55,840 nt of DNA, from IMG/VR virus record IMGVR_UViG_3300006868_000023, positions 1-55,840 of that record; one strand, written 5' to 3'. The position numbers were made by a program, and so were the translations under genes. This DNA is from a virus (Duplodnaviria; Caudoviricetes). The notes under the pieces are model-generated. The model saw only the letters and a program-made list of their open reading frames with translations, was not told the origin of the DNA and ran no database searches. Positions 7,120 to 39,184 of this stretch are shown here, in pieces; within the stretch, counting starts at the first letter, position 1, and each line of letters opens with the position of its first letter.

Positions 7120-7145
7120 TCCTTATGTAGGATATAAATATCAGT

Positions 7146-36700: not shown

Positions 36701-37635
36701 AGACTGTAATTGAATCAACAACTGTACAAACTGAAGATGCAATCTTCCGTGTAAACAGCAATGGTGCAAATACAGACGCTGGTTTCGAAGCAAACGCAAA
36801 TGGCACAATCAAGCAGATTCTTTATACATCTGTAGGCCAAGAGTGGGACTTCGGTTCAGAAAATGTTAAAGCAAGTACATTCGAAGGTGACTTAACTGGT
36901 GATGTAACTGGTAGTATCTCAGGTGCAACTGGTACATTTACAGGTGCAGTTACTGGTGGTTCATTAACTGATGGAACTGCTACATTAAGTAGTGGTGCAT
37001 TAAGTGGTGCAACAACTGGTGCATTCAGTGGTACAGTTACAGCAAATGCGTTTAGTGGTAACTTAACTGGTGATGTAACTGGTGACTTAACTGGTGATGT
37101 AACTGGTAATTTAACAGGTGACGTAAGTTTTGGTACATTAACAGACTCAGGTGAGAGCATTGCTATTACTAAGTTTGTTGATGAAGCAGATGGCATTGCA
37201 AGTAATGATAACGACACTAGCATTCCAACCTCAGCGGCAGTCATTGACTATGTTGAGAACAATGGTGGTGACGGCTTATTACTTAGACAAGCATTAACTA
37301 GCGGTAGTACAACTATCGATACTAGTGCTATGCCAAATATATCAAGCAGAACTTACTATGCACAGAAGATTGTAATCAAGATTGGAACAGCATTTAGTGG
37401 TGGTTCTTTCAACCATATTCTTGTTAAAGAGAATGCAGGTAGTGGAACAACATTAGTAGCGGCTGATGACGCTGATGCGGCAACAGCAGGTACTTACATC
37501 ATCGAATTAGATGGTGACGCAACACTAACTAAGAATGCGGCTGTACAAGTCCAGTTCATGCAGGCAGATGGTACAACACCAGCCACAACAAGTGGAGGAG
37601 CAGGTACAATCTCAGTACATTATAACTATGTCTAA
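33775..37635 (+). CDS. Large repetitive tail fibre / virion protein
   Basis: 1286-aa G/T/S/A-rich; LPVAQGGTGA, GNLTVQGTQT, YNSSTGVI, VTPGNYGSSTAIPVITVDQQGR and GDLTGDVT repeats; TAAATA at 33694-33699. Confidence 0.8.
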   Translation: MADIKNFGIKGLSSDVQLGKGGGKVKYDSSNNRFDLTQSDGSTLENLRLGAITAGSWNGSAIGSQYGGLGGDNSSSTGIVSFSSGTASVAAIDLSDSNLIDSSSQLPVAQGGTGASTSGGARTNLGLGSIATQDSNNVSITGGTVDGVVIGGSTAAAGSFTTINASSTITGDLTGDVTGTVSDISNHDTDSLGEGSSNRYFTNARARSAISVTDSGGDGSLAYNSSTGVITYTGPSAAEVRAHFSGGTGITITSGQIDLDDTAVTPASYGSTTAIPVITVDQQGRITSASTASISTSFTISDGSNTETVNGGDTLTFAGTANEVEVAVSATDTVTIGLPSDVTVSNNLTVSGSFLSDDITASAVSIAGDATITGNLTVQGTQTTVNSTTVETADAIFRVNSNGTTGTDVGFEANVGGTAKQIVYTGAGSKWSVGSETFVAATFEGDLTGDVTGTVSDISNHDTGDLAEGSNQYHTPARARSAISAGGDLSYNSSTGVMSFTERTDAEVRGLISVTDAGGDGSLAYNSSTGVITYTGPSAAEVRAHFSGGTGLTITSGQIDLDDTAVTPGNYGSSTAIPVITVDQQGRLTSASTASISTSWTLTGDSGSEVVNGGDTVLVAGGTNITTAVSATDTVTVNLDSDISLTNVTISDTFTDGTLSIAGGEITGAGNITASGAVTGGSLTDGTATLSSGALSGATTVTASGAVTGGSLTDGTATLSSGALTGATNGTFSGTVTGGTLTDGTLSASSGAITGATNITASGTVQYGSLSDGSITINGFVDEDNMASDSASLVPTQQSVKAYVDAQLTAQDLDFQGDTGGALSIDLDSQTLDIAGGTGIETAGSGQTLTVTLSDTAVTPGNYGSSTAIPVITVDQQGRLTSASTASISTSWTLTDGSNSETVNGGDTVTIQGTTNEVDVVVGATDTVTIGLPNDVTIGNNLTVTGSFLSDDITSSSISIAGDATITGNLTVQGTQTVIESTTVQTEDAIFRVNSNGANTDAGFEANANGTIKQILYTSVGQEWDFGSENVKASTFEGDLTGDVTGSISGATGTFTGAVTGGSLTDGTATLSSGALSGATTGAFSGTVTANAFSGNLTGDVTGDLTGDVTGNLTGDVSFGTLTDSGESIAITKFVDEADGIASNDNDTSIPTSAAVIDYVENNGGDGLLLRQALTSGSTTIDTSAMPNISSRTYYAQKIVIKIGTAFSGGSFNHILVKENAGSGTTLVAADDADAATAGTYIIELDGDATLTKNAAVQVQFMQADGTTPATTSGGAGTISVHYNYV
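34270..36780 (+). repeat. Internal direct duplications in the large fibre gene
   Basis: About 34400-34670 matches 35307-35576; 35461-35585 matches 36337-36460; 34680-34980 matches 36460-36760; differences mostly synonymous. Confidence 0.8.
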
Positions 37636-37651
37636 TTAATTTTAGATAACT

Positions 37652-37681
37652 AAAAAGGGCAGTTTAACTGCCCTTTTTTTT
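37652..37681. terminator. Bidirectional Rho-independent terminator
   Basis: AAAAAGGGCAGT-tta-ACTGCCCTTTTTTTT between convergent genes. Confidence 0.9.
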
Positions 37682-37685
37682 GACC

Positions 37686-37850
37686 TTAATACCAAGGATT
37701 GTTAGTCACATACTTAGGTAAAAATCTTTCCTTTTCACTTGGACCAAAAGCCTTTGCTATACGGTGATTCTTTGCCTGTGGGCTTAACAATTCTTTAGTA
37801 AGATCACGTTTGACTGCACGTTTGAAACGAGCAACTTCGAATTTAGTCAT
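37686..37850 (-). CDS. Small basic 54-aa protein downstream of the tandem riboswitch (not in ORF track)
   Basis: AGGAG SD 6 nt before ATG; MTKFEVARFKRAVKRDLTKELLSPQAKNHRIAKAFGPSEKERFLPKYVTNNPWY; ends at the terminator. Confidence 0.8.
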   Translation of the reverse strand: MTKFEVARFKRAVKRDLTKELLSPQAKNHRIAKAFGPSEKERFLPKYVTNNPWY

Positions 37851-37870
37851 GTCAATCTCCTAATGAAGAT

Positions 37871-37920
37871 TGCGTTCCTTCAGCACCATTGCCTACTTCC
37901 GTCCCAAAGGGATGAACGTA
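37871..37920 (-). ncRNA. Glutamine riboswitch aptamer (glnA motif), copy 2
   Basis: CGUUC-A-UCCC(uuu)GGGA-CGGAAGUA-GGCA(augg)UGCU-GAAG-GAACG: three-way junction with E-loop. Confidence 0.85.
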
Positions 37921-37924
37921 ACAA

Positions 37925-37978
37925 TGCGTTCCTTCGTCACAATTGACTACTTCCGTCCTATTGAATAGGATGAACGTA
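37925..37978 (-). ncRNA. Glutamine riboswitch aptamer (glnA motif), copy 1
   Basis: CGUUC-A-UCCUAU(uca)AUAGGA-CGGAAGUA-GUCA(auug)UGAC-GAAG-GAACG; P2 and P3 covary relative to copy 2. Confidence 0.85.
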
Positions 37979-37982
37979 ATAT

Positions 37983-37990
37983 TATTTATA
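37983..37990 (-). promoter_or_regulatory. T4-type late promoter TATAAATA
   Basis: TATTTATA on the + strand; predicted +1 near 37977, at the start of aptamer 1. Confidence 0.7.
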
Positions 37991-38198
37991 CTTTTTCGTT
38001 CACAAATGCGTACAGTTTTCGTGCTTCAGCAATTACATCTTCTGATGAAATTTCAATAACAGGTGCTTGTTGGCCTGCTCTTTCTTCATCACTTCTTGAG
38101 TAAAATGCGTTGGTTTGTTGGTCTCTGTTTTCTATTAAAATAGATTGAGCCATTCCTAAGATATCGGTTCGTAGTTCGAACCCACTTTTACTTGACAT
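37986..38198 (-). CDS. Small hypothetical phage protein
   Basis: GFELRTDILGMA...EDVIAEARKLYAFV; AAGGAG SD; TAAATA at 38248-38253. Confidence 0.8.
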   Translation of the reverse strand: MSSKSGFELRTDILGMAQSILIENRDQQTNAFYSRSDEERAGQQAPVIEISSEDVIAEARKLYAFVNEKV

Positions 38199-38256
38199 AG
38201 TTTTCTCCTTGTGTGTCAGTGTGTGTATGTGCGTAATTGCACATTAATATTTATTG

Positions 38257-38583
38257 TTAGGATTCTAACTGTACAATTTTTATGGCTTCTTCTACAGAGT
38301 ATGGACTGGACTCTGCCATTGGTGGTTTGGTTTCATAGATATTCTCATACTTCTCAACCATGTCAGCATTGATTTGTATGAAAGGTTTTTCTGCTTCTGG
38401 TACATCTATCTCATCATAGATTGCATCTACTGGACATTCAGGTACACATAATCCACAATCAATACATTCGTCTGGATCTATAACCAACATGTTTGGTCCT
38501 TCATAAAAGCAATCCACAGGGCAAACCTGTACGCAATGTGTGTCCTTACAGCCGACACAAGCACTAGTAACTACAAAAGCCAT
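38257..38583 (-). CDS. fdxA: Ferredoxin (7Fe, FdxA/FdI type)
   Basis: MAFVVT..CVGCKDTHCVQVCPVDCFYEGPNMLVIDPDECIDCGLCVPECPVDAI. Confidence 0.93.
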   Translation of the reverse strand: MAFVVTSACVGCKDTHCVQVCPVDCFYEGPNMLVIDPDECIDCGLCVPECPVDAIYDEIDVPEAEKPFIQINADMVEKYENIYETKPPMAESSPYSVEEAIKIVQLES

Positions 38584-38584
38584 T

Positions 38585-39184
38585 TTATCCTTTCTGAAAT
38601 TCTGGTTTTAATTCTATATGATATGTGCAACTAAATACCAGTGTTCTTCTGTTTGACAAGTTTGGTGTTAGCCCCCACGGTATATGGCTAGGCCAAAATA
38701 AAACTTTACCTGGTTTTCCATGCTTTACAATATTTGACTGAGACACCATAGGTGGTGTTGACCAACGTTTATCACCAAAGTGTTCAAAGTAAATACTGGA
38801 ACCTTTCTTTGCACTATCATCTATATCGAGGAACACCAATGCTGAATACCATCTGAGTCTTTCAGCACTTAGTGGAAAATTATGTTTAGGATTAACAGAT
38901 ATAAATTTACTATTTGCACATGTAACATCTATTTGTGCTGAATTTAATTTATAGTAATCAAAAACTTTTTGATGAAAAACATTACCAACAACCTGTATAA
39001 GTTTCTTGGTCTTGTCTAACGTACTATTCTCACCTGTAATGAATCCAAAGTTAGTCTCTACTATTGGAAGTTTATCAACCTCATCAACAATGTCATATAT
39101 CATGTCACTGTCTAATTCTAATTGTCCATCAAAAACTAAATCTGGAAACACAGGTGTAATATTCCAACCTAGTGATTTCCTCAT
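38585..39184 (-). CDS. 2OG-Fe(II) oxygenase-like (double-stranded beta-helix) protein, apparently degenerate
   Basis: PVFP N-terminus, YSALVFL...GSSIYF...GKVLFWPSHIPWG..PNLS..RTLVFS; no His ligands evident; ATG 5 nt after TAAATA. Confidence 0.5.
   Translation of the reverse strand: MRKSLGWNITPVFPDLVFDGQLELDSDMIYDIVDEVDKLPIVETNFGFITGENSTLDKTKKLIQVVGNVFHQKVFDYYKLNSAQIDVTCANSKFISVNPKHNFPLSAERLRWYSALVFLDIDDSAKKGSSIYFEHFGDKRWSTPPMVSQSNIVKHGKPGKVLFWPSHIPWGLTPNLSNRRTLVFSCTYHIELKPEFQKG

Follow-up and report, generated by a model that had tools for sequence, protein, structure and literature searches.

The question raised by positions 37686 to 37990 (minus strand) of IMG/VR virus record IMGVR_UViG_3300006868_000023 is whether two adjacent RNA aptamers and the short open reading frame (ORF) behind them form a working genetic switch, and what the encoded 54-amino-acid (aa) peptide might do for the phage. 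The window, by which we mean the whole stretch of 55,840 bases that was analyzed, had been described in a sequence-only reading as holding a promoter, riboswitch, and peptide that form a self-contained unit. We find that the RNA is a tandem type-1 glutamine (glnA) riboswitch, that the peptide gene is real, coding, and under purifying selection, and that promoter motif, aptamers, Shine-Dalgarno (SD) sequence, ORF, and terminator make up a self-contained modular unit that recurs as a block in different phage backgrounds. We put the combined reading, an RNA switch in front of a coding gene, at a probability of about 0.78, a figure that excludes the guessed target of the peptide. The unit has the following features, in window coordinates.

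37983-37990, minus strand: TATAAATA, a T4-type late-promoter-like motif that overlaps the stop of a 70-aa ORF; predicted start at about 37976-37978
37923-37978, minus strand: glutamine-I (glnA RNA) aptamer 1, RF01739, 56.8 bits, E = 6.3e-10
37869-37920, minus strand: glutamine-I aptamer 2, joined to the expression platform, RF01739, 55.5 bits, E = 1.5e-9
37853-37872, minus strand: putative SD-sequestering hairpin, with 5' arm CAAUCUUC (37872-37865), loop AUUA, and 3' arm GGAGAUUG (37860-37853)
37857-37860, minus strand: Shine-Dalgarno GGAG, 6 nucleotides (nt) before the AUG and wholly within the 3' arm of the hairpin
37686-37850 (stop included), minus strand: 54-aa basic protein of the MTKYQ...LPxYIxNNPWY family, net charge about +8
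37652-37678, both strands: intrinsic terminator hairpin with A-run and U-run flanks, -18 kcal/mol, z -5.0

A tandem glutamine riboswitch upstream of a coding gene

Scanned as a whole with Rfam 15 (cmscan), the window gives six matches above the cut-offs, four of them tRNAs and two to RF01739, for which the gathering score is 35 bits. Both RF01739 matches are full-length (model positions 1-53 of 53) and lie more than 20 bits above that cut-off, a repeat run agrees, and the proposal of two tandem glnA aptamers on the minus strand is thus borne out. Each copy has the three-stem junction (P1, P2, P3), and the CGGAAGUA and GAAGGAACGC cores are identical in the two; P2 (UCCUAU/AUAGGA versus UCCC/GGGA) and P3 (GUCA/UGAC versus GGC(A)/(U)GCU) differ between copies yet pair, as had been noticed from the letters. 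By analogy with other members of the class, both aptamers probably bind glutamine. Pairs of the P1, P2, P3, and SD hairpin structure were counted over 25 proximal aptamers with platforms, which give 24 distinct rows. P1 is paired in 97.5% of cases and P3 in 91.6%, with three P3 pairs and two P2 pairs changed on both sides; over the whole structure pairing is seen in 91.7% of cells, against 84.0% in shuffles (0 of 500 reach the observed value), and sliding the 3' partners leaves 36 to 51%. A further pairing, between the tail of aptamer 1 and the P3 loop of aptamer 2 (CAUUG/CAAUG, CAUUA/UAAUG), was seen by eye in many tandem leaders, not all, and was dropped as unsupported.

Read along the minus strand, the end of the 70-aa ORF and the motif (37990-37983) are followed by 4 bases, aptamer 1, a 3-base spacer, and aptamer 2, and then by CAAUCUUC-AUUA-GGAGAUUG, AC, the AUG at 37850, the 54-codon ORF running to 37686, and the terminator. 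The AGGAG (37857-37861, minus strand), the K/R-rich ORF, the terminator, and the promoter motif singled out in the earlier reading are all in place. The reading had also called the ORF unannotated, which holds in that it has been given no name; the exact peptide is, however, already on record on 15 contigs, the longest of 234,498 bases, and named members of its family are listed as "hypothetical protein." A word-indexed search returned five clusters with 80 to 98% identity to the peptide, and a profile search of 1.84 billion representatives gave 11 proteins at E ≤0.001, 10 of which are full-length (43 to 60 aa), the 11th being a dubious 1,079-aa protein (E 6.7e-4). Members share an N-terminal MT[KQR][YF][QE], a basic [KR][RH][AS][VI][KR] stretch, a variable middle, and an invariant C-terminal LPxY..N.P.Y; insertions and deletions are whole codons and fall in the variable middle, and the termini are invariant. 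The median ratio of nonsynonymous to synonymous substitution rates (dN/dS) is 0.27 over 337 of the 435 pairs (those with 0.05 < dS < 2, from 30 distinct coding sequences), and 94% of the values are below 0.5. None of 200 shuffles folds as stably as the terminator hairpin, which can serve both the peptide gene (minus strand) and the convergent tail-fiber gene (plus strand, ending at 37635), and relatives have hairpins of differing sequence at the same site downstream of the peptide gene.

The predicted co-occurrence of a conserved peptide with the aptamers is found with few gaps. All 19 IMG/VR loci that encode the family have RF01739 above the cut-off directly upstream (14 tandem, 5 single), and the same is true of 26 among 27 metagenome loci: 21 have a tandem, 4 a single aptamer, and 1 an aptamer truncated where the contig stops; in one of the four single-aptamer metagenome loci (L041) the first copy is visibly degenerate. 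The sole metagenome locus without an aptamer (L060, 593-690) consists of the AT-rich last third of the gene lying between GC-rich, bacterial-looking coding sequence and is probably a chimeric assembly. Leaving it aside and including the window, 46 full-gene loci collapse to 33 distinct leader-plus-gene sequences because several are copies of one another. In every complete locus the Rfam match of the proximal aptamer ends 17 to 22 nt before the ATG, and in most of them 18 nt before it.

The surroundings of the unit vary. Relatives of the window (L045, L046, L048, L049, and L051) have it beside tail-fiber, oxygenase, and ferredoxin genes in the orientation seen here, whereas in L009 and L033 it is flipped, co-directional with the fiber gene, and without the 70-aa ORF. 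In L006 and L025/L026 a T4-like major head gene stands immediately before the unit. The head protein of L006 shares 68% identity with its counterpart in OM43 phage Melnitz and 66% with the one in SAR11 phage Mosig, and both of these phages have the same head-gene junction without the insert. In other loci the unit has a bilin-reductase-like gene on one side and gp32 on the other (L028/L029), is preceded by nrdB and the 70-aa ORF (L052), or adjoins a tail sheath gene (L056), and it is found without the 70-aa ORF in L003, L006, L009, L025, and L033. The unit recurs as a block, and the claim that it is self-contained is upheld across these phage contigs and differing neighborhoods.

Expression platform, promoter motif, and direction of the switch

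The 8-bp SD hairpin opens at the C directly 3' of aptamer 2 P1 and closes 2 nt before the AUG. The 27 nt from this C to just beyond the AUG fold with -8.4 kcal/mol (z -4.0; 2 of 200 shuffles are as stable), and an equivalent hairpin is present in 15 of 15 distinct family platforms (-4.8 to -8.6 kcal/mol). In the 24 distinct rows its two segments are 100% and 93.9% paired, with four pairs changed on both sides, and the haplotypes CAAUCUUC/GGAGAUUG and CAUCUUU/GGAGAUG differ on both sides at three pairs. A wider sample of phage aptamers was drawn from a core-pattern scan of IMG/VR, which returned at least 120 stretches; 80 loci (L064-L143) were taken, and what we say of this sample holds among those loci. 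The post-P1 C opens an SD-enclosing helix in 43 of its 60 distinct platforms, with arms unlike those in the window.

The J2/3 junction of aptamer 2 has GG at 37899-37900, and a C is found at 37872, directly 3' of P1. From their position in the consensus and from section 7 of PMC11477058, where ligand-dependent pairing of G23 (J2/3) with C60 at the base of P1 is described, these bases appear to be the counterparts of G22/G23 and C60 in the aptamer of known structure. Section 20 of PMC6212724 has glutamine binding relayed as the melting of a short helix attached to P1 and states that in the gifB leader this C plus the following bases can pair with the ribosome-binding site (RBS); section 17 of the same paper (Klahn et al. 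2018) reports glutamine-dependent activation of translation in vivo. A platform hairpin opened by the post-P1 C fits this published glutamine-ON model, and a glutamine-ON translational switch is, by analogy with the tested gifB leader, well supported, the ON polarity itself being taken over from that analogy.

We propose that the locus is a monocistronic phage unit that would be read from the T4-type late promoter TATAAATA (37983-37990, minus strand) into a leader of two type-1 glutamine aptamers. Without glutamine, C37872 and the next seven bases would pair with GGAGAUUG and bury the Shine-Dalgarno. With glutamine bound, C37872 would be pulled into the aptamer as partner of the J2/3 guanine, the short helix would melt, and AUG 37850 would become open to ribosomes. 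Having two aptamers in tandem would make the response sharper or shift it; a passage of PMC2864571 (Weinberg et al.) associates such an arrangement with a more digital response.

The motif TATAAATA, found at the place proposed for it, stands 4 nt ahead of the first Rfam match and 6 nt ahead of the base with which P1 begins. We take this word to be a T4-type late promoter, read by gp55. Promoters of that type have a -10 element and no -35 element and stand just upstream of late genes. All three exact copies of the 8-mer in the window are upstream of a same-strand gene. The looser form NATAAATA occurs 15 times; 12 of the copies fall within the roughly 5% of the window that is noncoding by crude gene calls, and 13 are no more than 160 nt upstream of a same-strand start (two of them, at 7133 and 45511, just 5 nt before the start codon, in keeping with late genes that look leaderless). 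Among distinct family leaders with an intact 5' flank, 32 of 32 have NATAAATA 5 to 25 nt before the first P1, most commonly at 6 to 7 nt; 19 of these are TATAAATA and the remainder GATAAATA or AATAAATA. Units that stand directly behind a terminator, with no gene before them, have kept the motif as well. Searches by tblastn with the gp55 and gp33 proteins of Melnitz and Mosig found nothing within the window, a result of little weight given that the window holds about 12% of the genome. If the motif is used as we suppose, the unit would be expressed late.

Several results weigh against this account of the switch. When the whole leader is folded for minimum free energy (MFE), the SD hairpin persists and the two P1 stems do not appear, the aptamer halves pairing otherwise, although plain MFE folding is blind to tertiary contacts and to ligand. 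The hairpin structure put to the pair count was derived from the window's own sequence, and the covariation comes essentially from two haplotypes, for which a slip of one base on each arm is another possible description. The shuffle control for pairing between aptamer tail and SD in the wider sample is weak (46 observed; shuffle mean 39 and maximum 46), and the model does not account for the coupling of aptamer 1 to the one platform. The exact 8-mer TATAAATA is no commoner in the window than chance would give (3 copies versus 5.2 expected), so that the promoter evidence consists of the looser NATAAATA and its conservation. No terminator separates the 70-aa ORF from the aptamers, and read-through transcripts are therefore likely too.

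These points bear on two other accounts. The leader could be supplied by read-through from the oxygenase, ferredoxin, and 70-aa ORF genes, the unit having no promoter of its own and TATAAATA being a chance AT-rich word; the lack of enrichment, the overlap with the 70-aa ORF stop, and the missing terminator all speak for this. It is nevertheless unlikely, given that NATAAATA is held in position in all 32 leaders, including those after a terminator without an upstream gene, that it is concentrated in intergenic DNA upstream of genes, and that Mosig has CATAAATA at the same place. Glutamine might instead repress the gene, or the aptamers might control the stability of the RNA or its transcription and not the initiation of translation, and some riboswitch classes do include both ON and OFF members. 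Such a scheme seems to us very improbable: aptamer 2 and the ORF are not separated by any terminator-like hairpin, the SD hairpin, which shares the C needed by the bound aptamer, is the one downstream structure that is conserved, and, according to section 17 of PMC6212724, both glutamine riboswitch representatives tested in Synechocystis raised the reporter after an ammonium upshift. We thus favor translation switched on by glutamine from a leader with its own late-type promoter.

Candidate roles of the peptide

Small ORFs are common behind phage aptamers. Of the 80 sampled loci, 70 have an ORF of 20 codons or more whose ATG lies no more than 60 nt after the aptamer. Sorted informally by motif, without formal clustering, these comprise the NNPWY family (5), YRG/DUF4278-like ORFs (11), Mosig_00116-like ORFs (6), ORFs of about 64 aa with GTSGY (8), ORFs of about 30 aa resembling the Melnitz ORF (22, the largest group), WQLVLIK ORFs (6), and others (12). 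Pfam has no match for representatives of the groups other than YRG, and four of the six tandem aptamers in the sample belong to the NNPWY family. We note that most aptamers in the sample precede an SD and a basic ORF of 28 to 65 aa, in at least six motif groups.

Database searches gave no lead on the function of the peptide. The AlphaFold2 (AF2) model from a 32-row alignment has a mean predicted local distance difference test score (pLDDT) of 74.9, with a helix at residues 3-22 at about 91 and the remainder uncertain; Foldseek with this model against the PDB gave 0 matches at E ≤10, and the ESM Atlas offered no usable match. When 17 family members were compared with Pfam at E ≤10, two single stray matches were all that appeared, and tblastn with three members against 50,697 GenBank phage records gave chance matches only (E ≥5). 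Membership in DUF4278/IF17 (PF14105) was considered and rejected: the six-frame translation of the window and all 17 members are without a match at E ≤10, and likeness to three cyanophage DUF4278-like ORFs has an hhalign probability of 0.14%, in keeping with the earlier remark that the peptide does not resemble IF7/IF17. Complex prediction from the peptide alignment and two copies of the Escherichia coli glutamine synthetase (GS), taken as a proxy, gave a score of 0.00 where the mark is 0.32, which counts neither way. One family member (L119, 2561-2707, minus strand) has an internal LIYRGIPH, with the YRG motif typical of DUF4278, between the terminal blocks, and has no Pfam match.

Our best guess, a tentative one, is that the binding partner of the peptide is a host enzyme or regulator involved in nitrogen or glutamine use and that the peptide is IF17-like in role, not in sequence. 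The targets suggested in the earlier reading, namely GS, PII, and lysis timing, are speculative. We argue for a nitrogen-linked target because the same switch drives IF17-type proteins in cyanobacteria and, seemingly, in cyanophages. The peptide could, more specifically, be a functional analogue of the GS inactivating factors that inhibits host GS or PII and spares ATP/glutamate late in infection, an idea we hold as possible without leaning on it. It draws on the report in section 15 of PMC6212724 that 25 of 28 glnA aptamers in cyanobacterial genomes precede DUF4278/IF17 genes, on the sub-threshold DUF4278 ORFs that follow the aptamer region in the three T4-like cyanophages inspected, and on the YRG motif of L119. 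Binding of the inactivating factors to GS is, in a passage of PMC6316151, electrostatic and dependent on conserved arginines, and the peptide has a charge of about +8 and a confident basic helix. Set against this are the absence of a DUF4278 match in 17 family members and of any Pfam match in L119, the lack of a match for the peptide in Pfam (E ≤1) or PHROG (E ≤0.1), and the statement in a part of PMC9004378 that OM43, host of one riboswitch-bearing phage, has no glutamine synthetase. Moreover, because at least five other unrelated groups of small ORFs follow phage aptamers, a single shared target is not obvious. The peptide may instead serve the phage's own program, associated with nucleic acid, ribosome, or virion or paired with the 70-aa protein, glutamine then being a proxy of host nutrition; this too we regard as tentative. 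The unit does sit among late structural genes (tail fiber here, head gene in L006 and L025/L026, tail sheath in L056), and homologues of the acidic 70-aa ORF adjoin it in many loci, the peptide being strongly basic and helical. The unit is, however, also found without the 70-aa ORF in the five loci named above and among replication or metabolic genes (L028, L052), and no DNA- or RNA-binding family was matched in the Pfam scans.

A joint reading, in which phages hold a toolkit of switch-gated micro-proteins (at least six unrelated groups, 28 to 65 residues) and the NNPWY version inhibits or re-routes a nitrogen hub, is in our judgment rather doubtful. If it were true, aquatic phages of widely separate lineages, T4-like myophages at one end and phages of about 0.4 Mb at the other, would share glutamine-gated micro-proteins, the NNPWY family would be the version for hosts that are possibly not cyanobacteria, with GS, PII, or glutamine amidotransferase as targets, and late in infection the phage would have direct feedback control over nitrogen flow in the host. 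Were these proteins to target the nitrogen metabolism of the host, the virus would exert direct control over a central nutrient pathway of aquatic bacteria by sensing a metabolite.

Genomic setting and known glutamine riboswitch systems

The window is a linear record with a CheckV completeness of 12%. Its family-B DNA polymerase is closest to that of Sinorhizobium phage Phosso (46.7% identity, 469 kb), followed by Agrobacterium phage Atu_ph07 (42.5%, 490 kb) and Rak2-like phages (about 41%, about 350 to 380 kb), and since these relatives are phages of about 350 to 490 kb, we consider it a fragment of a very large phage. The unit lies in a minus-strand island with a 2-oxoglutarate-Fe(II)-oxygenase-like gene, a 2x[4Fe-4S]-type ferredoxin gene, and the 70-aa ORF, and the island is convergent with a 1,286-aa tail-fiber-like gene (plus strand, ending at 37635). 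When a 1.2-kb region was compared with phages by blastn, the ferredoxin gene alone was matched. The ORF directly upstream belongs to the context and is not a proven part of the unit.

37986-38198, minus strand: 70-aa acidic ORF, with its own NATAAATA at 38248

Where homologues of this ORF adjoin the unit they are mostly upstream, once downstream (L026), and once on the opposite strand (L053), and the acidic protein is a possible partner of the basic peptide.

Six of the 22 runs listed are metatranscriptomes with part of the window in them, and contigs of four of these, compared over 37400-38600, span parts of the unit, although start, strand, and transcription are not readable from contigs. 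A contig covering 37923-38184 is without differences in X11 and X13, and X15 has contigs at 37724-37901 and 37874-38217. We note that in two runs a contig over the 3' part of the tail-fiber gene (37400-37615) halts at 37615, which is 20 nt before the stop codon, and continues as sequencing-adapter letters.

Both the glutamine riboswitch class and its presence in phages are already known. In the parts of the literature concerned, glutamine riboswitches are reported in OM43 phage Melnitz, SAR11 phage Mosig, and related virome contigs (PMC9004378), and the RNA is reported in T4-like cyanophages (PMC9964418, which has S-CREM1, and PMC9602691). The Melnitz authors tie the RNA to ssrA and speculate on lysis timing, and the downstream small protein does not come up in those passages of PMC9004378 and PMC9964418 that treat the RNA. 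What is new here is the joining of a known RNA class to an undescribed phage small-protein family. We found no paper on the peptide family, its coupling to the aptamers, or the portability of the unit in a literature search that did not cover supplementary tables of neighboring genes.

The closest tested relative is the type-1 leader of Synechocystis gifB, which encodes IF17 (PMC6212724; RF01739). It has the same aptamer class and a small basic protein downstream, and its post-P1 bases, among them the C that becomes the partner of the J2/3 G once glutamine binds, are able to pair with the RBS, which is the platform logic proposed here. The unit in the window differs in being phage-borne and tandem, in having a late-promoter-type motif where gifB has an NtcA-regulated promoter, and in a product that is not DUF4278/IF17; the host may not be a cyanobacterium. 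The downstream-peptide (type-2) riboswitch of marine picocyanobacteria, as described in part of PMC2864571 (Weinberg et al. 2010), is likewise a glutamine-sensing leader before a very short ORF; it is, however, of the RF01704 pseudoknot type, unlike the RF01739 found here, and according to a passage of PMC6212724 its ORFs are DUF4278-like. In cyanophages Syn33, S-H25, and DSL-LC02 nrdB and an aptamer region precede small YRG-repeat ORFs, which remain below the DUF4278 cut-off (20.3 to 21.8 versus 25.3 bits, E 2.5e-4 to 7.4e-4). The arrangement in Synechococcus phage DSL-LC02 (L035:700-1085) is unusual in that after the 5' half of an aptamer (700-730) come a 51-codon ORF, a second GAAGGAACGCA (at about 907), an SD, and the DUF4278-like ORF, and its aptamer has an Rfam score of only 35.6 bits.

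Among phages, Mosig (MT647606.1) has CATAAATA, a single aptamer (50 bits), AAGGAG, and an annotated 51-aa basic hypothetical protein, Mosig_00116.

L022:1026-1260: Mosig riboswitch region, with the aptamer between CATAAATA and Mosig_00116

Melnitz (MZ577097.1) has an aptamer of 52.8 bits, an SD region GGGGAGAG, and a 32-codon ORF that is absent from the record; at this site (L013:1501-1670) the record assigns the aptamer to ssrA as its 3' end, and a 33-codon coding sequence is annotated on the opposite strand over the 32-codon ORF. Both ORFs are outside the NNPWY family (hhalign 1.7% for the Mosig protein), and the window further differs from the Melnitz, Mosig, and cyanophage cases in its tandem aptamers and in coming from a phage related to the Atu_ph07, Phosso, and Rak2-like phages of about 350 to 490 kb. 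The unit is a compact, protein-free module for expression that would be glutamine-ON and is a candidate sensor. Phage riboswitches are rarely described, and the published phage glutamine cases stand as an RNA curiosity or are linked to other genes; the glutamine element here is one half of a portable unit whose other half is a conserved small protein, and similar wiring is seen with several groups of micro-proteins.

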